Positions 15,367 through 61,649 of a stretch of DNA of 64,000 bases are shown here, in pieces. The stretch lies in assembly GCA_977017645.1 (NCBI GenBank), contig OZ360220.1, positions 207,700,001 to 207,764,000 on the forward strand, read 5' to 3'. Position numbers and translations under genes: made by a program. A model generated the notes under the pieces. It was not told the DNA's origin. It searched no databases and saw nothing but the letters and a program-made list of their open reading frames with translations. The first letter of the stretch is position 1; each line of letters opens with the position of its first letter. Origin of the DNA: Torpedo marmorata. Its lineage: Eukaryota.

Positions 15367-18300
15367 TGATAGGCCTATCAATAATCACTCAAGAGACTAT
15401 GAGTGGAAACGAACCATAGGCTTTTATTAACTATAAACACAGCTACAGTTGACCTTCAGATCTGATCCCGGACTGGGGGCGGAGCGGTGGCACAAGGGCC
15501 TTTATTCAGGTGAGGAAAGGGGAGGGATTACCGGGACAACCAGGGGAGGGGGAGGAGACACCGGGACAGACAGCAGGACATGCCCATACTACACCCTAGC
15601 ACAAAATACACCTAAACAGTGGTTTACCACATTCATCCCTCCTTTTAAAAGAGTCCAGCGAGGTGACGTGACCACAGTGACTATTTTACAGACACAAAAC
15701 AGATATATTTACATTCAATTTTACAGGTCAAGGTGATCCGGTGGTCTGATTCGCCGCTGCGACCCGCGCAGTACCCGTGGTGACGGGGCGGGTTGTGGTG
15801 ATGGGGGAGATGGCAGGATTGTCTGCAAGGTCGCCTCCTGCCTGGCTTCTTGTGGCGTATCCGGTCCCGGCGAGGGTGCTGGGGCTGACGTGCTGGGAGG
15901 GGGAATGGGGAGGGGCTGCAGCAAGTGGTCTTGCCCGTCGAGGGTTTCTCCCGGCGCTCCAGCGGGCGCTAGGTCACAAATTGACACCGTGTCCTCTCGC
16001 CCATCAGGGAAGACCACGTAGGCATACTGTGGGTTAGCGTGCGCTAACTGCACCCTCTGGACCATCGGCTCATATTTGCTGCTCCGAAGGTGGTTGCGGA
16101 GCAGCACAGGTCCCGGGGACGTCAGCCAGGCAGGTAGGGTGGTTCCGGTGTTCGACTTCCTGGGGAAGGAGAAGAGTCGTTCGTGAGGGGTTGCATTCGT
16201 GGACGTGCACAGCAGGGACCGGATAGAGTGGAGGGCTTCGGGGAGGACCTCTTGCCAGCGGGAGACCGGCAGTCCCCTGGACTTGAGAGCCAGGAGCGCG
16301 GCCTTCCAGACAGTAGCATTCTCCCTTTCCACCTGTCCATTTCCCCGGGGGCTGTACCCTGTGGTCCTACTAGTGGCGATGCCTCGGGTCAGCAGATACT
16401 GTCGAAGCTCCTCACTCATAAAAGCTGATCCCCGGTCGCTATGTATATAGTTCGGGAAACCAAATAGCGTAAATACCTGGCGAAGAGCTTTAATGGTTGA
16501 GGTAGCCGAAGTGTCGGGGCAGGGGATGGCGAAGGAGAAGCACGAGTACTCATCAATAATATTCAGAAAATACACATTGCGGTTTGTGGAGGGAAGGGGG
16601 CCCTTGAAGTCAATGCTGAGACGTTCAAAAGGGCGGGTGGCTTTGACCAGCTGTGCCTTGTCGGGGCGATAGAACTGAGGTTTGCACTCCGCGCAAACCC
16701 GACAACTGCTGATCATTGTCCTGACCTCTTCCAGGGAGTATGGCAGGTTCCGTGACTTCACGAAGTGAAAGAGCCTGGTAACTCCTGGGTGGCAGAGGTC
16801 GTCATGTAGGGCGTGTAACCGGTCGATCTGCGCGCTGGCGCATGATCCCCGGGATAGAGCATCGGAGGGCTCATTGAGCTTCCCGGGCCGGTAAAGGATG
16901 TCGTAATTGTAGATGGAGAGTTCTATTCTCCACCTCATGATCTTGTCATTTTTGATCTTACCCCGCTGCTGATTGTTGAACATAAAAGCCACAGAGTGTT
17001 GATCTGTCAGCAGGGTAAAATGCTTACCGGCGAGATAGTGCCTCCAGTGCCTGATGGCTTCCACTATGGCCTGGGCTTCCTTCTCCACCGCGGAGTGCCG
17101 AATTTCGGGGCCTTGGAGGGTCCGTGAGAAAAACGCCACCGGCCTTCCCGCCTGGTTGAGGGTAGCAGCCAGCACGAAGTCCGATGCGTCGCTCTCTACC
17201 TGAAAAGGTGTCTCTTCATCCACCGCGTGCATTGTTGCTCGTGCAATGTCCCCTTTTATAAGGTCAAACGCCTTACGTGCCTCCGAAGCAAGGGGAAATG
17301 CGGTGGATTTTACAAGGGGTCGGGCCTTATCAGCATAATTGGGAACCCACTGCGCATAGTATGAGAAGAACCCGAGACATCGTTTAAGGGCTTTGGGGGT
17401 GTGGGCAAGTGGGAGTTCCAGCAGGGGCCGCATGCGGTCGGGGTCGGGTCCAATAACCCCGTTCTCGACCACACACCCCAAAATGGCGAGGCGGGTGGTA
17501 CCAAACACGCATTTGTCTTTATTATACGTAAGGTTTAATGCTTTGGCCGCCTGCAGGAACCTCCGAAGGTTGTTGTCATGGTCCTGACGATCATGACCAC
17601 AGATGGTAATGTCGTCCAGGTATGGAAAAGTGGCTTTAAGTTTATAGTGATCAACAATCCTGTCCATCTCCCACTGGAATACTGACACACCTTTTGTGAC
17701 CCCGAAAGGGACGCGCAGGAAATGGAACAGCCTGCCATCCGCCTCGAACGCGGTGTACGAACGGTCCTCCCGACAGATAGGGAGCTGATGGTATGCAAAT
17801 TTTAGGTCTATCGTTGAAAATAGCCTATACTGGGCTATTTGATTCACTATATCCGCTATTCGTGGTAGCGGACATGCATCCAGCTGCGTGAATCGGTTAA
17901 TGGTTTGGCTGTAGTCCACCACCATTCTACTCTTGGCCCCTTTTACTACGACTACCTGGGCTCTCCAGGGGCTATTACTTTTCTCAATAATCCCCTCCTG
18001 TAATAATCGCTGCACCTCCGCCTTGATTAACGCTCTGTCCCCCGCACTGTATCGCCTGCTCTTGGCTGCCACCGGCTTACAATCAGGGGTCAGGTTGGCG
18101 AATAACGACGGGGGCGAGATCTTAAGGGTGGAGAGACCACAGGTAGTCTGAGGCGTGTTGTCCAGGAACTGGTGGTTCGCTACAGTGATCGCAGGGTGGG
18201 GACCGTCATATCGCATCGTGACACTCCATAAGTGGCTCTGAAAGTCAAGACCCAGTAATACCGGCGCACACAAACGATTCATAATAAATAACGAGAATTG

Positions 18301-19902
18301 CCGATACTCTGTTCCCTGTACTACAATGTTCGCCACACAAGCCCCCCGGATGTCTGTTGTGTGTGACCCGGACGCCATGGCCACCCTCTGGCTTACCGGT
18401 ATGGTAGTCAGGCCACAGCGCTGAACAGTGTCCGGGTGAATGAAACTCTCCGTGCTGCCAGTGTCAAATTGGCAAGTGGTCTTGTGCCCCTCCACCAGGA
18501 TGTCCATCATGGATCGCGACAGCTGGTGGGGAACACTCTGGTCGAGAGTGACGGATGCTAGGGTCGGGATGTAGTCGTCTTGATCCGAAGCTGACAAAGA
18601 TGGCCGCTCCCGTGGGTTGCACGTGTCGCTGCTGCTCGCGCTGCAAGATGGCGGCGCCGGAAGTGCCGGAAGTACAGATGTCGTGCTATTAGATGGCGGC
18701 GCCGGAAGTGCCAGCATCAAAGATGGCCGCCTCCACTCCTCACACGAGGTCAACGCCGGAAGCGACAGCACGTTAGATAGCCGCTCCCGTATCTCGCACG
18801 CGGCGCTGCTCGGACCCGCGCGTGGCTTAGAGCGGCAGGCCTTTGCATAATGGTCTTTCTTGCCGCAGCTAGAGCAAGTCGCGTCGCGGGCCGGGCAGCG
18901 TTTTCTTTGGTGCTTATCGAGCCCGCAGAAGTAGCACTTCTCGGGCTCGCAGTTAACGGCTGCGGCAGTGAGTTCGAGGATAGCGGCGGCTGCGATTGGG
19001 TCGTGGCAAACGGCGGCGGCGGTCAGATGGCTGGCAGGGTTGGGGGATGGGGCTGACCACGCGGCAGGCTTGAGGTCGCGTGCCTGTATAGCGTCCGAGT
19101 TCCGCAGCGCGGCCTCCAGGGTGTGGGCCATTGCAACCGCGGTACGGAGGTCCAGGTCGGCGTGCTCCAGCAGCCGCTGGCGCACGTATACCGACCTGAT
19201 CCCCATGATGAACGTGTCCCTCTCCAGCAATTCGGCGTGTTCCTCTGCAGTCAGCGCCTTACAGTCGCACGCTCGCACCAGCGACTGTATGTCCCTGACA
19301 AACTCAACGATCGACTCCCCGGCCCGCTGTTTTTGCGTTAATATTCGGTACCTTGCGTAGACCGAGTTAACAGGTGTAACATAGATTCTCTTCAGCGCGT
19401 CCATCGCCTCCGTGTAGGTTTTACAGTCCCGAATCGTCGAGAATACCCGAGGGCTTACCCTGGACACGAGGAACTCCAATTTCTGGTCCTCGCTTTCTGC
19501 TTTGATCGTCGTCAGAAAGGACACGAAACTGCGTAGCCAGTGTTCAAAAGAATTACCGGCATCAGGAGCTAGAGGGTCGATGTCCAATCGGTCCGGTCTT
19601 AGAGCGCTCTCCATTGGATTTTAATAGTTAATAAAATTGATAGGCCTATCAATAATCACTCAAGAGACTATGAGTGGAAACGAACCATAGGCTTTTATTA
19701 ACTATAAACACAGCTACAGTTGACCTGCAGATCTGATCCCGGACTGGGGGCGGAGCGGTGGCACAAGGGCCTTTATTCAGGTGAGGAAAGGGGAGGGATT
19801 ACCGGGACAACCAGGGAAGGGGGAGGAGACACCGGGACAGACAGCAGGACATGCCCATACTACACCCTAGCACACAATACACCTAAACAGTGGTTTACCA
19901 CA
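15367..19902 (-). mobile_element. Young full-length Gypsy (Mag-like) LTR retrotransposon
   Basis: 265-bp LTRs at 15367-15631 and 19638-19902 with 3 mismatches by eye, 5-bp TSD CCTAC, PPT AAAAGGAGGGATGAA, and a single gag-pol ORF. Confidence 0.96.
15721..19614 (-). CDS. Gag-Pol polyprotein (2 CCHC knuckles, protease, RT, RNase H, integrase), 1297 aa
   Basis: CYFCGLDKHQRKRC and CSSCGKKDHYAKAC; FDTGS; YLDD; ESDAS...EKEA...TDQ; HHCC, IDFKG, HSDRG, GNGQVER. Confidence 0.95.
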   Translation of the reverse strand: MESALRPDRLDIDPLAPDAGNSFEHWLRSFVSFLTTIKAESEDQKLEFLVSRVSPRVFSTIRDCKTYTEAMDALKRIYVTPVNSVYARYRILTQKQRAGESIVEFVRDIQSLVRACDCKALTAEEHAELLERDTFIMGIRSVYVRQRLLEHADLDLRTAVAMAHTLEAALRNSDAIQARDLKPAAWSAPSPNPASHLTAAAVCHDPIAAAAILELTAAAVNCEPEKCYFCGLDKHQRKRCPARDATCSSCGKKDHYAKACRSKPRAGPSSAACEIRERLSNVLSLPALTSCEEWRRPSLMLALPAPPSNSTTSVLPALPAPPSCSASSSDTCNPRERPSLSASDQDDYIPTLASVTLDQSVPHQLSRSMMDILVEGHKTTCQFDTGSTESFIHPDTVQRCGLTTIPVSQRVAMASGSHTTDIRGACVANIVVQGTEYRQFSLFIMNRLCAPVLLGLDFQSHLWSVTMRYDGPHPAITVANHQFLDNTPQTTCGLSTLKISPPSLFANLTPDCKPVAAKSRRYSAGDRALIKAEVQRLLQEGIIEKSNSPWRAQVVVVKGAKSRMVVDYSQTINRFTQLDACPLPRIADIVNQIAQYRLFSTIDLKFAYHQLPICREDRSYTAFEADGRLFHFLRVPFGVTKGVSVFQWEMDRIVDHYKLKATFPYLDDITICGHDRQDHDNNLRRFLQAAKALNLTYNKDKCVFGTTRLAILGCVVENGVIGPDPDRMRPLLELPLAHTPKALKRCLGFFSYYAQWVPNYADKARPLVKSTAFPLASEARKAFDLIKGDIARATMHAVDEETPFQVESDASDFVLAATLNQAGRPVAFFSRTLQGPEIRHSAVEKEAQAIVEAIRHWRHYLAGKHFTLLTDQHSVAFMFNNQQRGKIKNDKIMRWRIELSIYNYDILYRPGKLNEPSDALSRGSCASAQIDRLHALHDDLCHPGVTRLFHFVKSRNLPYSLEEVRTMISSCRVCAECKPQFYRPDKAQLVKATRPFERLSIDFKGPLPSTNRNVYFLNIIDEYSCFSFAIPCPDTSATSTIKALRQVFTLFGFPNYIHSDRGSAFMSEELRQYLLTRGIATSRTTGYSPRGNGQVERENATVWKAALLALKSRGLPVSRWQEVLPEALHSIRSLLCTSTNATPHERLFSFPRKSNTGTTLPAWLTSPGPVLLRNHLRSSKYEPMVQRVQLAHANPQYAYVVFPDGREDTVSICDLAPAGAPGETLDGQDHLLQPLPIPPPSTSAPAPSPGPDTPQEARQEATLQTILPSPPSPQPAPSPRVLRGSQRRIRPPDHLDL

Positions 19903-40283: not shown

Positions 40284-43200
40284 TCACAATGTTAAACCCA
40301 TAATCCTCGTATATGGGCCCCAAATTTTCAAAAAAGAATGATATTTATTTCGTAAATTATAAGTAATTTTTTCCAATGGTATACATGACCGTAACTCTGC
40401 ATGCCATCGTTCTAGATTTAAATCAACATCCGATTTCCAAGTAATAGCTATACATTTTTTCGAAACTGCTAATACTATACGTAAAAATTCTACTTGATAC
40501 ATATTCAATTTATGTCTAATACTAAAGTTTTTAATATCTCCAAATAAAAATAACATAGGATCCATTGTAATTTCAACACTAAAAATTCTTTCTAAAAAAT
40601 TCTTAACTTTCAACCAAAAATCTTGAATTTTTGAACATGACCATGTACAATGTACAAAAGATCCTATTTCAGTTTTACATCTAAAACACATATCTGATAA
40701 CGCTGAATTAAATTTCTTCAGTTTTTTAGGTGTCAAATACAATTGATGAAAAAAATTATATTGTACTAATCTATATCTCACATTAATAACTTTTGTCATA
40801 CTTAGTTTACATAAATCTTTCCAATGTTTTTCGTCTATATTAACATTCAAATCTAATTCCCATTTCAATCTAGACTTATGTTCTCCTACCTTAGACATCT
40901 TTCTTTGAAACAACTTATACATTTGTGATATAAATTTATTAACATTGACTTTGGTAATTAATAACTCCAATTCATTTTGTCTTGGTATTGTTAATTCATT
41001 CCCTAATCTCTCAGTCAAAAAAGCTTTAACTTGAAAATAAACTAACATTGTATTATCTAATATATTAAATTTTTCTTTTAACCTCTGAAAGGTAACAAAT
41101 CTACCTGCTTCAAAACAATCTTTTAGTGTCTTAACTCCCTTTAAAAACCATAACTTAAGTAACTGATTATCCATAGAAAATGGTAAAAGCGGATTCTGAT
41201 ATATTGGTGTATTTAAAGAAATTAATCCTTTTTGACCTATCTCCTTATCTACTTGCGACCAAATTTCCAACAAATATTTAATAATTGGTGTTTTTTTCTT
41301 TTTAAGTAATAATAATTTAGGATTCCATTTATAAATAATATCTTCTTTATGTATTTCTCCCATATTATTCAATTCTATATTAATCCAAGCAGAAGATTTA
41401 TTTAAATCAAAAAATTCATTAATAAATTTTAACTGAGCTACTTTATAATAATGTTGAAAATTAGGAAGTTGTAATCCTCCCATCTCATAATTCCATGTTA
41501 ATTTATCTATACTTACTCTTGCTAACTTTCCTTTCCATAGAAATTTCCTAACAATAAATTTTAAATCTTTAAAAAATTTATTTGGAATACCATAAGGAAT
41601 CGATTGAAAAAGATATTGAATTCTTGGAAAAACATTCATTTTAATACAATTTACTCTTCCCATCAACGTTATAGGTAAGTCTTTCCAAAGCTCTAAATCT
41701 TTTTTTTTTTTCGTAAATAAAGGTGTATAGTTTAATTTATACAAATTTTCCAAATTTGTGTCCACTTTGACTCCCAAGTATTTAATACTCTCTGTAGTCC
41801 ATTTAAAATCTGTAACTTCTTTACATCTAGTGTAATCCCCTTGTGATAAAGCCAAAATCTCACTTTTATCTGAATTAATCTTATATCCTGATATCTCACC
41901 ATATTCTGTCAATATAATAGCCAATTGTTGAAGTGATGTAACAGATTTTGTCATATATATTAATACATCGTCTGCGAACAAACTAATCTTATGCTCTTCC
42001 CTACCGACCTTTATTCCCATTATGTTTATATCTTCTCTAATCATTTCTGTTAAAGGTTCTATTACCAACACAAACAAAGCAGGTGATAAAGGGCATCCCT
42101 GTCGTGTTGATCTTGATAATAAGAATTTTTGCGATATCTGTCCATTTGTAACTACTTTAGCCGTAGGTTCTTTATATATAGTTTTAATCCAATTTATAAA
42201 ATTATCTCCAAATCCAAATTTTTCCAAAACCTTAAATAAGAAATTCCACTCTACTCTATCAAATGCCTTCTCTGCATCCAATGTTACCACCAGTGGTAAA
42301 TCTTGTTTCTTCTTATATACATTGATTAAACTTAACAGTCTAGCTATATTATCTTTCGAATATCTATTTTTAATAAATCCGGCTTGATCTGAATGTATTA
42401 AATTTGGTAAATATTTAGCTAATCTATTTGCTAAAATCTTCGCCATTATCTTATAATCTACATTTAACAATGAAATAGGCCTATAAGATTCTGTTTTTAA
42501 TACATCTCTATCTTTCTTTGGTATAACCGTAATGATAGCATTTAGAAATGTCTTCGGTAATAAATGAGTTTCCTTAACTTGATTCAATACCTCCATATAC
42601 AAAGGTATCAATAAATCTTTAAATTCTTTATAAAATTCTACTGGAAATCCATCATCACCTGGAGATTTACCACTTCTCAACGTCGATATTGCTTCAGTAA
42701 CTTCTCTCATCGTAAAAGGTAAATCCAAAGAATATTTACTCTGAACACTCAATTTAGGTAAAGTAATTTTAGATAAAAATCTATTTATCTTCGTTTCATC
42801 TTGATCTGTCTCAGATCTATATAAATTCTGATAATATTCTTTAAAAGATTCATTTATTTCTTGTGGCTTATATGTTATTTCCCCAGTATTTCTCTTCCTT
42901 ATAGCATTAATTGTTTTAGAAGCTTGCTCTTTTTTCAATTGCCATGATAACACCTTGTGTGCCTTTTCCCCTAACTCATAATATCTTTGTTTTGTTCTTA
43001 CTATCAATTTTTCAGTCTTACGCGTTTGCAATAAATTATAGTGTAATTTCCTCCTTACTAAGCGATTCCTCTTAAGAATAGACCGGTTTCTCTGTGAATC
43101 TTTTTCCATAATTTCAATCTCCTTCTCTAATTTTTCTTCTTCTCTCAGATAATCTTTTTTTATCTTTGCTGAAAAACTTATTATTAAACCTCTTAAATAG

Positions 43201-44075
43201 GCTTTCAAAGCTTCCCATACCATAAATTTATCATCTACCGAATTATTATTTACTCTTAAAAATTCCTGAATTTCTCGTCTCATATATTCACAAAAATCCT
43301 TCCTTTTCAATAATAAAGAATCAAATCTCCAGTTATAAATAGTTTTTTCTTTCTCTGGGATTATACATGTCATTAATAAAGGTGAATGATCCGAAATTAT
43401 TCTTGCTTTATAAGATATCTGTGTTATTCTTTCTTGAAGTTGTGAAGACAATAAAAATAAATCTATCCTGGAAAAAGAATTGTGTCTAAATGAATAAAAT
43501 GAATAGTCCTTCTCTCTAGGTTTCAATTTTCTCCAAATATCCACCAAATTTAAATCCTCCATCAAATTAACTATCTTTTTCACTATTTTTGGTCTAACAG
43601 ATGTTTTAGAAGTTTTATCCATTATTGCATTTAAACAACAATTAAAATCACCACCAACTAAAATATTTTCTTTAGCATCTGATAAATGTAGAAAAGCATC
43701 TTGAATAAACTGTTCATCATCTGGATTTGACACATACAAATTCATAAGAGTCCAAAATTCTGAATAAATTTGACAATAAATCAAAACATATCTGCCTGCC
43801 GTATCTATCACTGTCGATTGTATCCTGAAAGGCAACTTTTTATTAACTAAAATAGCAACTCCCCTAGCTCTAGAATTAAATGATGAAGCTACAACATGTC
43901 CTACCCAATCTCTTTTCAATTTCTGGTGTTCAACATCCGTCAAATGAGTTTCTTGTAAAAAGGCTATGTCTACCTTCAATTTTTTTATATATGTCAAAGT
44001 TCTTTTCCTTTTAATTGGATTATTAAGCCCATTTATATTAATACTAACTAAGTTTATACTCTTAGAATCCCCCAT
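40284..44075 (-). CDS. Intact L1 ORF2p (APE endonuclease, RT, CCHC)
   Basis: Open frame from ATG 44075 (MGDSKSINLVSININGL) with LQETH, GDFN, SRID, SDH, RQGCPLSP, FADD and CFRC...HCTWSC. Confidence 0.95.
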   Translation of the reverse strand: MGDSKSINLVSININGLNNPIKRKRTLTYIKKLKVDIAFLQETHLTDVEHQKLKRDWVGHVVASSFNSRARGVAILVNKKLPFRIQSTVIDTAGRYVLIYCQIYSEFWTLMNLYVSNPDDEQFIQDAFLHLSDAKENILVGGDFNCCLNAIMDKTSKTSVRPKIVKKIVNLMEDLNLVDIWRKLKPREKDYSFYSFRHNSFSRIDLFLLSSQLQERITQISYKARIISDHSPLLMTCIIPEKEKTIYNWRFDSLLLKRKDFCEYMRREIQEFLRVNNNSVDDKFMVWEALKAYLRGLIISFSAKIKKDYLREEEKLEKEIEIMEKDSQRNRSILKRNRLVRRKLHYNLLQTRKTEKLIVRTKQRYYELGEKAHKVLSWQLKKEQASKTINAIRKRNTGEITYKPQEINESFKEYYQNLYRSETDQDETKINRFLSKITLPKLSVQSKYSLDLPFTMREVTEAISTLRSGKSPGDDGFPVEFYKEFKDLLIPLYMEVLNQVKETHLLPKTFLNAIITVIPKKDRDVLKTESYRPISLLNVDYKIMAKILANRLAKYLPNLIHSDQAGFIKNRYSKDNIARLLSLINVYKKKQDLPLVVTLDAEKAFDRVEWNFLFKVLEKFGFGDNFINWIKTIYKEPTAKVVTNGQISQKFLLSRSTRQGCPLSPALFVLVIEPLTEMIREDINIMGIKVGREEHKISLFADDVLIYMTKSVTSLQQLAIILTEYGEISGYKINSDKSEILALSQGDYTRCKEVTDFKWTTESIKYLGVKVDTNLENLYKLNYTPLFTKKKKDLELWKDLPITLMGRVNCIKMNVFPRIQYLFQSIPYGIPNKFFKDLKFIVRKFLWKGKLARVSIDKLTWNYEMGGLQLPNFQHYYKVAQLKFINEFFDLNKSSAWINIELNNMGEIHKEDIIYKWNPKLLLLKKKKTPIIKYLLEIWSQVDKEIGQKGLISLNTPIYQNPLLPFSMDNQLLKLWFLKGVKTLKDCFEAGRFVTFQRLKEKFNILDNTMLVYFQVKAFLTERLGNELTIPRQNELELLITKVNVNKFISQMYKLFQRKMSKVGEHKSRLKWELDLNVNIDEKHWKDLCKLSMTKVINVRYRLVQYNFFHQLYLTPKKLKKFNSALSDMCFRCKTEIGSFVHCTWSCSKIQDFWLKVKNFLERIFSVEITMDPMLFLFGDIKNFSIRHKLNMYQVEFLRIVLAVSKKCIAITWKSDVDLNLERWHAELRSCIPLEKITYNLRNKYHSFLKIWGPYTRIMGLTL

Positions 44076-44376
44076 AATCAAATAATAATCCTTCCCTGTC
44101 AATCAGATCCACCAGCGTGTCCCTCTTACTCATCTGCATATATATGTCCTCCTCAGTTAGAATGAAAGAAAGAAACATTAAAATAAGAAAAAAAAACCCT
44201 ATAAAGAACACTGGTCTTCTATTCCCAGTGTTACCCCCCTCCATTGTTCGAGAAGCGGTTCTCGCCGCTAAAGTGGTGATAGGTTCGGAAGAAGTGCTCG
44301 TACACCCACCTCCCCCCAACAGATTTATATAATATCCAAAATGTTTTCAATTAACGTCTCCCACAATAATATTATC

Positions 44377-55003: not shown

Positions 55004-55993
55004 GATCTCTCAAGCTTATGCCAACTCCTAAAGCAATCGTCTCAGTAATATTCCCTCTTTTATTTCCCTGTAATGCATTCTTTATCACATGCTCATCAAT
55101 CAGCAACCCAGCAGTGCGTGATTCTCCCACCACCCAGCTAAACCAGGGATGATTGACAGTTGTTAATTAACCGACCAACCGGAATGCTGTTGGGTAGTGG
55201 AAGAAAACCAGAGAATCTAAAGAAAACCCACATAGTTATGGAGAGAACTGGCAAACCACAGCATTTCCAGGTCAGGATTGATCTTGGGTCACTGGAATTA
55301 TGAGGAGGCAGCACCATCTACTGCAATGTTGACATCCTGTGCCATTTGCATTGCATTGTTGTTGGTGAATCATCTGTGCTCAAATTCACTTCTGCATTTT
55401 ATATCTCTATCTAGATAGTTGCAAAGCACTTTGGGATATTGTGTGTAAAGCACAAAATCAATGAATTAATAAAGAACCAAGACAGTCCTTAAGAAAGTGA
55501 AGGGCCACAGAGGACAAAAAACATCTCTGATTTGGTTCTGATTTGAGAGTGCTGCAAAGGGGAGCCAGGTAATGGAAAAAATACGACGTTGATAAGGAGT
55601 CTGATTCTCGTCTAGTCTGAGATGGGAGCAAGTTGGGGATGTGTGATCAGGTGTTACTTTGCTGTTGACTGCCATCATCACTGATAAGACGGGATTGGAA
55701 AGCTTGCACCACTCCTCCAGTACTCTACAGCAACATCAACCTCAATCTTGACCTCAACTCTTAAAAAAGAGAATTGAATCTCTCATCCCTGAGTGAAATG
55801 CACTTTCTGCTCAATAACTCCCAAGTTCATCTAAAAAAAAAAATAGCAACACAAGACTTCTTTTTACAAACCAGTTGTTGAAAGTGTTTCAGCATGTAGT
55901 GACTTCAATCCAATAAATAGTCACTTGGAGGCTAGGTGAGACACTTGTTCTTGACGCGTTTCAATTAATTTACTAACAAAGTCCAATTTGTTC

Positions 55994-56250
55994 TTTTTAA
56001 AAAAATTTAGACATACAGCACGGTAACAAGCCATTTCGGCCCACGAGTCCGTGCCGCACAATTTACACCCAATTACCCTACACCCCCGGTACATTTCGAA
56101 TGGTGGGAGGAAACCGGAGCCCCCGGGGAAAACCCACGCAGACGCGGAGAGAACATACAAACTCCTTACAGACAGCGCGGGATTCGAACCCCGGTCCCGA
56201 TCGCTGGCGCTGTAAAGGCGTTGCGCTATCGCTATGCCAACCGCTACGCC
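55994..56250 (-). mobile_element. V-SINE inserted in the 3' LTR of the BEL element
   Basis: Absent at the equivalent position (~60320) of the other LTR. Confidence 0.9.
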
Positions 56251-56947
56251 AAATGTTTATTAACACATGATGACTTGTAGCAATCTTCAATAACTTAAAT
56301 ACCTTCTTTAACGAAATGAAGACAATCCTTGATAACGATGCTTAATAACGATTCTTAATAACGTTCCTTTAAAACAATTATTTATAACTTCCTTTAAAAT
56401 GGTCAATGAAAACTATGACGATCTCACTCACCCTCCTCTAGGTCGCCATATTCTATATATATATATTTCTTCCCCGATTCGCGCGCATGCTCCAACACGC
56501 ATACTCCACCACGCATGCTCCAGCCACTTCCCCACTGCGCATGCGCCCGTCAACACACCTGCGCATGCGCAGAATGGTCAATAGGCCCAGCATGGCCTGC
56601 CAAACTCCGCGACTCCTTCGACACCCGCTGGATACATCGGAACGGCACGATAAAGGTAGGAACCGAGCCTATGGCTCTTACACTGGCCCCTAATTATTAT
56701 AACGAGACGCAATGTCTTAAATAATAATTACACTATCAATTACAAATAACAATAACTATATAACATTCAAACAATATACAAATCTTCTTTCTTCATAAGA
56801 CCAGAGTTTACCATAACTCTGGATCAATAAAGTCTGTAACCTGTATAGTATACAAAACAACAAATACAGTCAGTTTGTACTTATCAAAATTCTTTTATCT
56901 CCAGAATCTTTGAGTTAGAACGTCGACCAGTGAACCTCAAATCTTCC

Positions 56948-57703
56948 TCAGACAAAATAGATAGTTTTTCTTTTGAATTTAACACAAGGTACGTCTTCAG
57001 CATGTTGTTTCGCTTTATACCTTTCTTCAACATTCCACTTCTCATATGAAGAATTTAAACTCTTAGAACCAGAATTTGAATATATATCTGATCCTCTCGA
57101 TTTTAATAAACGAGTCTCTTTAATCTTTCCTGCATTCAATTCTTTCAATAAGAAAGTACTTCTCTCATTATCTTCCGAGAAATTAATAACTTGATCTGAA
57201 GTGAAAATATCATGTGATACATTGGTACTTCTATTGTCAACCTTGCTGTGGTAAACTTGAAAATTTCGAATTTCTTCATCTTTCCTGTTACATTGCTGCA
57301 ATGCAGTACCACTTTCTTTCTGCATTGTTAATAGCTGAACCTTCAATATACATTCTTGATTGTTTTCTATATTCAGCTGTTTTGTGTTATTAACCAATAA
57401 CTTGTTCTCTTTCAAAAGATGAATCTCTTCCTCCAACCTTTTACATCTTGATAATGCTGAATCTCTTTCCTCAATAACTGTATTTATTTCTTCAGCAGTT
57501 ATTCTTTTCTTCCGCTTTCTGACTTTGCAAATTTTATTTACAATTAAATCTTTCTGATTACTGTTTTCATGATTATCCAATATTTCCAATTCCTTTTTCA
57601 ACATTTTGTTCTCTGAATTCAATTGCATTAAATTATCATTCACATTCTTCTTTATTGCATCAGCACAATTTTCTGCTTTCATCAGTTTTACATCACGGTG
57701 CAA
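56948..57703 (-). CDS. Coiled-coil ORF containing a captured MIPOL1-like segment
   Basis: RITAEEINTVIEERDSALSRCKRLEEE...ENNQECILKVQLLTMQ...EEIRNFQVYHS resembles vertebrate MIPOL1 as I recall it (RITAEEMSALIEERDAALSKCKRLEQE...ENNQERALKAKLLSMQ...EEIQTLRVYYS). Confidence 0.78.
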   Translation of the reverse strand: MHRDVKLMKAENCADAIKKNVNDNLMQLNSENKMLKKELEILDNHENSNQKDLIVNKICKVRKRKKRITAEEINTVIEERDSALSRCKRLEEEIHLLKENKLLVNNTKQLNIENNQECILKVQLLTMQKESGTALQQCNRKDEEIRNFQVYHSKVDNRSTNVSHDIFTSDQVINFSEDNERSTFLLKELNAGKIKETRLLKSRGSDIYSNSGSKSLNSSYEKWNVEERYKAKQHAEDVPCVKFKRKTIYFV

Positions 57704-57959
57704 GATTTCTTCATTGACCTTATCTGCTGTAACCTCTGAACTACAAAATCTACTTTCAAATTTATTCTGTCATTTGTTTTATTCCTGCCTCTGATTCAAT
57801 TTCACAGGAATAATCACTAGTATTATTTGCAACATCGTCTAATACTTCATTTTCATCCATTTCTGATGAAAATAATTCCTTCAATGTTGTTTTAAATGCT
57901 TTTGATTTATTTTCACATTGATCTGTTTTCTTTTCTTCAAAAGTGACTTTCTTATTTAC

Positions 57960-59761
57960 AATCTTATGCTGTTCCCTTAACTCATCAAATTTCACAACCG
58001 AAATCCTGTTAACATTTATCGCTAACTGTTCCTGAGCAATATCATTATTTCTTTCCAATGGTCCATTAATTGTCCAACCAAGCTTGGTTCTAACAGCATA
58101 ACGTCCATTCCCTCTACTCCGTATTACTTCTAGTGGTTTCAAAACCTTTGGTACATCTGAACCAATCAGCATTTTTATTTCAGAATTAACCACAGATAAG
58201 ACAAATGAGTGTATAGACTTGGAAGATCATGAATTTTTTTGCCATGCAATCCAGCAAACTCTAAGCCTGAAACAATGCTGGTTTCAATGACCTCTTCTTG
58301 TCCCATGGTTTTCAACATAATCTTCATCTTTTTTCCTTGAATATTAAGTTTGTTCATTAGTCCCACCGTGCAAAAAGATGCAGTGCTGCCTGGGTCGAGA
58401 AATGCATATGTATGTACTGTTGCATCCCCTTTCTTGGTCTTTACTTGTACAGGCACTATTGAAAGTTTGCAGTTATCCACACCGGCCCTGGTAAGACCAC
58501 TTGTCTGAACCGAGGTTATAACATTGTTTTCTGATGTTTGCTTTGTTTCTGTTTGCTCATTTTTCAATTCCTTGTTTCTTTGATGGATATGCAACATTCT
58601 AGGATGCTTCAAATCGCATATGTTACAGTTAATTCACTTCTCGCAGTTTTTACTGAGGTGCCCTTTACACAGACAGCTAAAATATACTCCATTTTCCTTT
58701 AAGAAAGCGATCTTCTCATTATGTTCCTTCTTTTCCAACTGTAAACACATTTCCAAAGCATGTCCACCTTTACAGAACAAACAACTCTTCTCATTAGGCA
58801 AACTTTCCTTTTCCTTATTTACTTTATCTTTTTCTTTATTTATAACTGACACATTAGCAGCAAAACTACTTTTCAATTTCAGACTAGGCTGTGAGTTAGA
58901 CCTCTTTATAACTTTGTTCCCCATTGAATGGTACATGTGACTTGATAACACCACGCTCTTGGAGGCTTTGTCCTTGAATTTGCATATCTTGTACCCGTGG
59001 AACTAAAATATCTACCCTTTTGGTTGATTTCTTTTTTGTGGCTCATTTTTAAAATATAACTTCTTATCATCATACACTTTAAATAATTTACTCCGAGCAC
59101 CAGATACCATTGAGCCTTCTAGTACCTTTATTCTGGCCCTGGCAATAGCAATGTTTTCTTCCAGCTCCTGCTGCTCCTTTCTCCTTCTTAGCTGCTCTTC
59201 CTGTTCTTCTAAAAAATGTTTATCCTTAAGAGAATCTTGTCGTGCAAGAAGAGTAGACAAGTCAACTTCAATCTTTGTACGTGACGATGCAAAACTTGAA
59301 GTACGAGAAACTCTGGATCTTGAACCAGAAGAACTTTGTTTGCTTCTCCTGCTTTCAACATTTGAGACACTGTCACATACTTGTATTTTGTCCTGCAGGT
59401 CAGATGTTGTCTTCTTACTTGCCTCTTTCTCTGGCTCGAATTGTACATCCTTTGCATCTTCATCCTCTTTGTCTTCATCACCATTTGGTGACACATTTTC
59501 AGCCATTTCCACGTTGCTGTCTTCATGTTCAGTCGTAGTTCTTTGCAATAAGTTTTCAATGTTTTCATTCCCATCAACCGAAGCTGCCGCCTCTTCTACC
59601 TTTGCCAGCTTCAGTCTTTCAATGAGAATATTTTTATTTCCACTTGTATCTAGTTTCCGTCACTTCAATTCTTCTTTGAGATTCACAACCTTCATGTCTT
59701 CAATACGTTGTTCCTCAACAGCAACATCAGCGGCTTCTGCGTCAACTGCTGCTGCGGCCAT
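57960..59761 (-). pseudogene. Disrupted BEL gag-protease with an N-terminal SAP domain
   Basis: MAAAAVDAE...IEDMKVVNLKEELK*RKLDTSGNKNILIERLK, then DSVSNV-Ser-rich and KHFLEEQEEQLRRRKEQ Gag motifs, zinc knuckles and protease. Confidence 0.82.
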
Positions 59762-61649
59762 TTCACTCGTCTTGTTCCACCGTCCTTCGAGCATGCACAA
59801 CACTAGCCAAATCAACAGTCCCCAATGGACTAGCAGCAGCAAATCCAAACTGTGTTCAAACTTGCCAAAGATACACAGAAGGAGTCCACAGACTTATGCC
59901 TACCACTTCAGATGACTGTAATGTGCTGCTATTAACAAACGAGTTTCCACCGCAGCATCCGTCAATAATATCGCTGATTTTCAAGAAATGGTTTCTCCAA
60001 CGTATTTATAGAACACTTTATTATAAGATTAGAAGCTCTAAATCCCTCTCTGGCTGTTATTCATGGCAGATGAATGTGGATTAAAAACTGCCCCTAACTT
60101 GAGGCATTTCCAAAATGGCCATCATTTTATTTTAAATATCAGTCCAAAGCACAGAGAGCTCATCCTATCTTCTTTCCTTCAATTTTATGTTCCAAACAAT
60201 AAGTTTTCATTGACTAAAATGTAGTGACTTCAATCCAATAAATAATCACTTGGAGACTAGGTGAGACTCTTGTTCTTGACGCGTTTCAATTAATTTACTA
60301 ACAAAGTCCAATATGTTCAAAATGTTTATTAACACATGATGACTTGCAGCAATCTTCAATAACTTAAATATCTTCTTTAACAAAATGTAAACAATCCTTG
60401 ATAACGATGCTTAATAACGATTCTTAATAACGTTCCTTTAAAACGATTCTTCATAACTTCCTTTAAAACGATCAATGAAAACTATGACGATCTCACACCC
60501 TCCTCTAGGTCGCCATATTCTATATATGTATTTCTACCCCGATTCGCGCTCATGCTCCACCATGCATGCTCCAGCCACTTCCCCACTGCGCATGCGCCCT
60601 TTGACACTCCCGCGCATGCGCAGAATAGTCAATAGGCTCATCACGGCCTACCAAACTCCGCGACTCCTCCGACACCCGCTGGATACATCAGAACGGCGCA
60701 ATAAAGGTAGGAACTGAGCCTATGGCTCTTACACAGCATTTTGAATGAAATTAGTCAGTCACCCTCAAGGACATTTCCTTAATCATAACAATAATGAATT
60801 TAGGCATATCATTTGCTTTTAACACAAATTAACTTGAAAGATAGCTTCTGGTTTGGAGAAGACAGTGAAGGAATATTTGACGTTAAAATATAAATTCCCA
60901 ATTTTGAAAATGATGTGTAGTAATGAAGCTTCCTGTCCATGATTTGCAAAGATTTAGGCATGTTTTGTTCTTGTCCTCCACATTAATTGCACGGAAGAAT
61001 GAACAAGACGCATACACCAAATTGCAGTTAAGTGAAGTCATTAAAAGTAAATCTTCATTTTCATTTCTTTAAAGTTTGCATATTCAACAATTTAACAACG
61101 AAAGACCTATTCAGCCTTCATTGCTTAAAATAATATGATGGTTGTTACAAATTACTTTGTATTCATTGCTTCTTTTTCTAATGTCTGTGTATATTTGCTG
61201 TTATAATGGGATTACAAGTTTAGACTGTCAGTAGTTTTATCAGCTAATTAATATTACTGGAAAATACATTTTATAGTGATAAAGCAGTTAATGTGTTTTC
61301 AAACAGTTACTTAACAATCTTATTAAGTCTTTAAATTTACAAATGGCTTTCTAACCTAAATTAAGGTGGAACCTTGTTCCTGCTCCTCCCAGTCTAATGT
61401 CCTTTCAATTTGTTGGTCTGGATGTTCAGAATCAGGATCACTAATTTTTGTCATGATCATGTCAAGAAATGTATTGTTTTGCAGCAGCATTACAGGTGGA
61501 AATATTGCTATAAATTACGATTTTAAAAAATTAGTGCAATAGAAGAGAAAGTGAGGTTCTGTCTGTGGTTCATTGTCCATTGAGAAATCTGATGGCAGAG
61601 GGAAAGAAGTGGTTATTGTACTGTTGGGTGTTTGTCTTCAGGCTCCTGT

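Follow-up and report, generated by a model that had tools for sequence, protein, structure and literature searches.

According to the ICTV, BEL/Pao elements are primed by tRNA-Arg or tRNA-Gly, which bind an 18-nt site, and members of the Belpaoviridae/Semotivirus (BEL, Pao, Tas, Sinbad, Suzu, Dan and Flow) share a triple Cys-His box, an LDxG...LIG protease and a 5-bp duplication (PMC8742986). Priming by an element's own RNA is established for Tf1 and, in the accessible portions of the sources, is proposed for Tj1, sushi, Tcn1 and TAR/Houba/Osr-1 (PMC4600332, bioRxiv 2022.12.06.519325, PMC6317226). In Tf1/Tf2/Tj1, as in the Tf1/sushi group, the same sources in part describe a short site beside the 5' LTR that complements an LTR segment in place of a tRNA site (PMC4600332, bioRxiv 2022.12.06.519325), and the element described here resembles them in both respects. 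Beyond the Tf1 lineage, complementarity within the LTR has led to predictions of self-priming for Tcn1 (Gypsy) and the TAR/Houba/Osr-1 (Copia) plant elements; these belong to other superfamilies and hosts than our element, and the available part of the source describes neither a splice-built primer nor a U5 helix for them (PMC6317226).

For BEL elements, no statement on self-priming was found in the accessible portions of PMC554778, PMC3118150, PMC6238403, PMC8220671, PMC5443660 and PMC3601003. A wider search of openly accessible literature likewise returned no paper on the subject. Repbase entries may already remark on it. Here we describe a BEL/Pao element from a 64,000-nt stretch of the Torpedo marmorata genome (the window), whose lineage, to judge from comparisons with its relatives, very probably uses self-priming in some form.

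A non-autonomous BEL/Pao element in the window

The element spans 60733-55895 on the minus strand, is decayed and non-autonomous, and contains the following parts.

60734-60738: 5-bp target-site duplication, with its partner at 55890-55894
60220-60733, minus: 5' LTR, 514 nt, TGT...ACA
59015-59764, minus: broken gag N-terminus with a SAP domain and an in-frame stop inside, matching P0005/P0007 by tblastn
57969-58918, minus: three Cys-His knuckles and a BEL/Pao-type aspartic protease, with one stop and one frameshift
56948-57769, minus: 273-aa coiled-coil frame with two pieces of host MIPOL1, apparently captured
56683-56693, minus: polypurine tract adjoining the 3' LTR
55895-56682, minus: 3' LTR, 788 nt with its insert, delimited by alignment
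about 55995-56250: repeat insert of ~256 nt in the 3' LTR, which we would label SINE-like

The two LTRs are identical at 479 of 513 aligned positions (93.4%), and further copies of the ~256-nt insert were identified (D12, D14 and I6). The assignment to BEL/Pao made in a preliminary description of this DNA is supported by the TG...CA LTRs, the polypurine tract, the target-site duplication and the triple Cys-His box followed by an LDxG...LIG protease, the third knuckle of which differs from the published Suzu form. It is also supported by related polyproteins: a search with the knuckle-protease region returned 47 relatives, the best six of which are BEL polyproteins, either annotated as fish or unnamed, 60-67% identical to the query. 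All hits that carry a name come from fish, and PF05380 and PF03564 are present in many. Relatives of the element carry PF05380, PF03564 and PF18701, as do the Belpaoviridae/Semotivirus. Tf1 and sushi are Ty3/gypsy chromoviruses, whereas the window element is BEL/Pao and has no polyprotein of the chromovirus kind.

Reverse transcriptase, RNase H (PF05380) and integrase are present in BEL order in the relatives P0030 and P0034 and are absent from the window copy, which we therefore regard as a non-autonomous derivative. The DUF1759 part of gag is also missing upstream of the knuckle-protease region. The start of gag encodes a SAP domain (59704-59609, minus; PF02037, E 7.7e-9) that is absent from the four related polyproteins scanned (P0003, P0007, P0030 and P0034), and a search for a longer relative of this SAP-gag piece found none, which is weak evidence. 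In place of pol there are two MIPOL1 pieces (57550-57248 and 57244-57125, minus), lying in swapped order inside one open frame; they share 63% identity with stingray MIPOL1 over 102 aa, with sharks and rays as best hits, which suggests capture from host RNA and a cartilaginous fish as the host. Two other public runs contain, at high depth, close kin of the LTR and leader; their contigs show neither joints nor pile-ups of starts or ends and are neutral as to start site and expression.

Two other elements in the window have long open frames. A LINE (40284-44102, minus) lies in very AT-rich DNA and has an open 1272-aa frame for endonuclease, RT and zf-RVT. A young Gypsy element (15367-19902, minus) has LTRs 99% alike and an open 1299-aa frame for a PNMA-like gag, RT, RH and IN. 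A single base separates the LTR from a 13-nt site without TGG (19624-19636) that complements the element's own LTR at 19693-19705 and 15422-15434, across an AATAAA, and 0 of 5000 shuffles reach 12 nt. This Gypsy element is a candidate for a second, independent case of self-priming.

A candidate primer site that covaries with the element's own LTR

Just inside the 5' LTR of the BEL/Pao element lies a short segment complementary to a motif in each LTR.

60215-60219, minus: 5-nt spacer between the LTR end and the primer site
60202-60214, minus: 13-nt candidate primer-binding site, without TGG, complementary to the LTR motif
60471-60483, minus: candidate self-primer motif in the 5' LTR (12 Watson-Crick pairs and one G.U)
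56402-56414, minus: the same motif in the 3' LTR (13 of 13 complementary)

The site lies where the preliminary description had placed it, at 60214-60202, 5 nt past the 5' LTR and lacking TGG. The perfect 13-nt reverse complement reported in the 3' LTR (56402-56414) proved exact, and the 12-of-13 complement reported in the 5' LTR was confirmed at 60483-60471, where the thirteenth pair is the G.U. Within the window, the first 11 nt of the site are found only at the site and at the LTR motif copies. When the 5' LTR was dinucleotide-shuffled 5000 times, a complement of at least 12 nt to the first 30 internal bases arose five times, and one of 13 nt once; among 1834 other 30-mers from the window, five reach at least 12 nt against the 5' LTR and one reaches at least 13 against the 3' LTR with its insert removed.

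The preliminary description had named covariation between primer site and LTR motif in related BEL families as a test of its proposal. Our scans produced 86 loci, comprising 30 that were scored, 14 near-copies of these and 42 left unscored, mostly contigs without an LTR or without a primer site. With the window element, the scored set amounts to 31 elements in 29 families (L048, L069 and L070 being one family), many of them drawn from a small number of assemblies. The ends of the LTRs were placed by eye, in many cases once the inverted repeat had been seen, a procedure biased toward a positive result; in the window element, L012, L081 and L067, the presence of two LTR copies fixes them independently. 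The window element clusters with L005 and L001 (support 100/99), and the 20 elements whose complement is contiguous form one side of a 97/96 branch in an unrooted tree. A search of viral contigs for relatives found nothing, and a candidate in L078 was dropped as it sits in coding-like sequence. Seven animal-type BEL/Pao contigs (L080-L086) come from seven prokaryote genome bins and probably represent host contamination.

Every site was compared with its own LTR and, with equal freedom, with the 30 others, splice junctions being allowed. This analysis revealed a mean complement of 10.7 nt with the own partner versus 6.4 nt with swapped partners, and none of 100000 permutations reached the observed sum across the 31 elements. 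When the register was fixed, 196 of 200 positions were Watson-Crick paired over site positions 1-10 in the 20 contiguous-type elements (permuted mean 142, maximum 166), as were 89 of 90 in nine elements of the intron type described below. The proposal thus passed its test strongly. Perfect matches of 9-15 nt were found in 19 of the 20 contiguous-type elements, the other, L012, having one internal mismatch in 13.

The covariation can also be followed between individual elements. The site 10-mer takes 23 different forms in 29 elements, and comparison of 11 related pairs shows 22 differences in the site, 19 of which have a matching change in the LTR. The near-identical L069 and L070 differ at one position, in both site and LTR, and between the window element and L005 the site and the LTR alike differ at positions 6 and 7. 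In other copies, changes at site positions 11-12 had no partner change among the rows listed, for which LTR cover was low. Furthermore, the motif ends in AC in 27 of 29 elements, and the next base is C, likewise in 27 of 29 (CG in 23), and the spacer measures 2-6 nt in the 20 contiguous-type elements and 0-5 nt in the nine intron-type elements. Such covariation is expected under self-priming, because the primer gets copied into the new site, as described for Tf1 cDNA in the accessible part of PMC11042837.

Eleven elements are more distantly related, and in these the complement within the unspliced sequence is limited to 5-8 nt. Eight of these have a complement of 11-14 nt across a predicted GT-AG junction in the LTR, and L081 has 10 of 11 positions across its junction, with one internal mismatch; L053 and L083 have no such complement, and the LTR of L083 may be cut short. 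L067, examined afterwards and with its LTR end set by two copies, has 10 nt across a predicted intron of 122 nt. If splicing is real, a complement that exists only across the splice junction needs RNA to pair, which argues against a cause at the DNA level, and the pairing is probably made in RNA. An intron in the window element's own LTR is unsupported, as the complement there is contiguous and no junction scores better.

A predicted transcript start and a predicted helix with U5

The position of the motif in the transcript was assessed from the following features of the 5' LTR.

60519-60526, minus: TATA-like box, starting 43 nt before the motif
60490-60504, minus: predicted second helix, 5' arm upstream of the primer
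60325-60330, minus: AATAAA poly(A) signal, 140 nt after the motif
60251-60268, minus: predicted second helix, U5 arm

The usual spacing from TATA to start is 27-31 nt (the TATA+30 rule), which would put the start of the window element's transcript near 60496, about 12 nt before the motif. The motif had been described as close to the transcription start and ~40 nt after a TATA-like box; the observed spacing of 43 nt agrees with this, but the motif itself begins some 12 nt beyond the usual start. In nine of the 20 contiguous-type elements, a pattern loosened by eye places a TATA-like box 53-67 nt upstream of the motif's 3' end; two more elements have a box at -83 and -91, and the remaining nine have none. 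Across families, transcription thus probably begins 10-25 nt upstream of the paired segment. In all 20 elements, the first poly(A)-type signal comes 28-140 nt past the motif; a primer at the poly(A) site was rejected, the signal of the window element lying 140 nt downstream of the motif.

The segment upstream of the motif has a predicted helix with U5, at -20.9 kcal/mol versus -16.7 kcal/mol for swapped partners (0 of 50000), the own partner being the best in five of 20 elements. Against each element's own shuffled U5, with a U5 window picked after the swapped-partner result was seen, a signal is seen only for windows starting about 40-28 nt before the primer end, the mean z reaching -1.7 for those that start 36-32 nt before it; z falls below -2 in nine of 20 families, and the helix is weak in about half. 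In the window element it is not significant for the 5' LTR (36 of 300 shuffles) and modest for the 3' LTR copy (7 of 300). Pairing with U5 suggests that the segment upstream of the motif is transcribed. Folding of the whole leader of the window copy gave no primer helix and was no better than shuffles (z 1.05 and 0.80), and an Rfam search gave one hit, by chance.

These data bear on a strictly Tf1-like arrangement, in which the transcript would start at the motif or 1-4 nt before it and its 5'-terminal 11-16 nt would be the primer. The length of the primer fits Tf1-type primers, and in many families a pyrimidine-A step can be picked out by eye 12-16 nt before the primer end (60486-60485 here). 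However, the TATA-like boxes of the window element and L023 lie 41-51 nt before that step, which is too far, the segment upstream pairs with U5, and the primer of intron-type elements spans exons. In addition, the flanking helices of the Tf1 pretzel do not rise above swapped partners (5189, 3373 and 33850 of 50000, the first two being the helices on either side; short helices could be missed). We consider this arrangement unlikely, and the data do not support a motif that sits, as it does in Tf1, right at the start of the transcript. The proposal of Tf1-style self-priming thus stands as regards the missing tRNA site and the self-complementary primer-binding site, but is not supported as regards a primer at the RNA 5' end or the pretzel helices. 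Whereas the Tf1 primer is the 5' end of the RNA, that of the window lineage is predicted to lie 10-25 nt inside it; the three-duplex pretzel of Tf1 was not detected, and a helix between the 5' segment and U5 is predicted instead. The lineage also differs from Tf1 in its 2-6-nt spacer and in the intron-split primer of its distant relatives. The feature seems to work like Tf1 self-priming without making the element a member of the Tf1/sushi group, the position of the primer and the helper helix apparently being different.

A candidate mechanism and its implications

The account we favour, and hold to be fairly probable on the strength of these sequence comparisons, is one in which a non-autonomous element is primed by its own RNA through an internal primer and a helix with U5. 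The transcript would begin about 25-39 nt before the AC of the motif. The LTR motif in the RNA would pair with the primer site beside the 5' LTR, and the 10-25 nt upstream of the motif would pair with U5. The RNA would then be cut after the AC, probably, by analogy with Tf1, through RNase H supplied by an autonomous partner, and the freed 3' end would be extended across the spacer into U5. With U5 paired upstream of the motif, a capped fragment of ~25-39 nt would be held at two places, in a crossing, pseudoknot-like order. The variable spacer of 0-6 nt would need variable trimming of the end, and the window copy would be movable only with enzymes supplied in trans. In distant relatives the same primer would be assembled by splicing an LTR intron.

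A broader reading is more tentative, and we regard it as possible rather than probable. In a BEL/Pao branch of aquatic animals, the tRNA may have been replaced by a capped 25-39-nt piece of the element's own RNA, bound at the primer site and at U5 as a tRNA surrogate. The older state would be a primer built by the spliceosome from two LTR exons, making copying dependent on splicing, and the branch of the window element would have lost the intron once.

The primer might instead come from own sequence elsewhere (the 3' copy of R, another copy in the genome or short RNAs of solo LTRs) rather than from the 5' end of the same molecule. Covariation fits any copy equally, the perfect match in the window element is the motif of the 3' LTR, and the position of the motif before a poly(A)-type signal in all 20 elements would place it at both ends of the RNA. 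Decay after insertion explains perfection in the 3' LTR alone equally well, given the divergence between the LTRs, and the Tf1 precedent, in the part of the source available, is a 5' end (bioRxiv 2022.12.06.519325). This origin appears about as improbable as the strictly Tf1-like start.

Slightly less likely again is that the helix is real but structural, serving packaging, dimer formation or a translation switch, with priming achieved otherwise, for example by a tRNA bound elsewhere. Long-range helices do form in retroviral leaders, and six of the 30 relatives (L008, L012, L016, L021, L023 and L025) have a match of 11 nt (12 in L016) to the 3' end of tRNA-Lys(CUU), 157-422 nt past the LTR. 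Against this, the window element and 24 of the 30 relatives lack the match, and in L012, where both LTR copies stop 422 nt short of it, the LTR end is not defined by it. The helix at the proposed primer site is within 0-6 nt of the LTR boundary, keeps one polarity and ends at a constant AC. In the leaders, the Lys(CUU) match precedes a TGGCCA palindrome by about 40 nt. TGGCCA and a second palindrome, CCAATGCATTGG, recur in the leaders of 7-9 relatives, and in the window at 60116-60121; as a guess, these could possibly be dimer-initiation sites.

Priming by a tRNA 3' end or an internal tRNA fragment, with an incidental LTR match, is very improbable: the ICTV assignment to tRNA-Arg or tRNA-Gly and the half-tRNA priming known, from the accessible part of PMC6317226, in copia lineages speak for it, but covariation, with each of the many site 10-mers tracking its own LTR, has already largely refuted it. 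In line with the earlier claim that there is no tRNA site, the 18-nt site for tRNA-Arg or tRNA-Gly described for Belpaoviridae (PMC8742986) was not found in the window lineage, TGG occurs within the first 10 nt in none of the 31 elements, and the complement of the 7-nt site core occurs in none of 189 metazoan tRNA 3' 12-mers (PMC13524379 supplement). A tRNA-Gly 3' end shares 7 nt with the site in the same sense, so that it cannot pair, and we treat this likeness as chance. ARAGORN found no tRNA in the window, and two in 46 loci, both in L086.

If self-priming of this kind is borne out, BEL/Pao would be the third LTR superfamily in which it occurs, and a self-priming BEL branch would be relevant to the question, raised in the accessible part of PMC3601003, of whether priming by tRNA is ancestral or a late development. 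It would also explain elements scored as having no primer-binding site by tRNA-based annotation. The model implies a small RNA with a defined end, for which existing gonad RNA data can be searched. For the elements themselves, self-priming would mean freedom from control through tRNA supply and, in the intron-type relatives, a reverse transcription tied to splicing.
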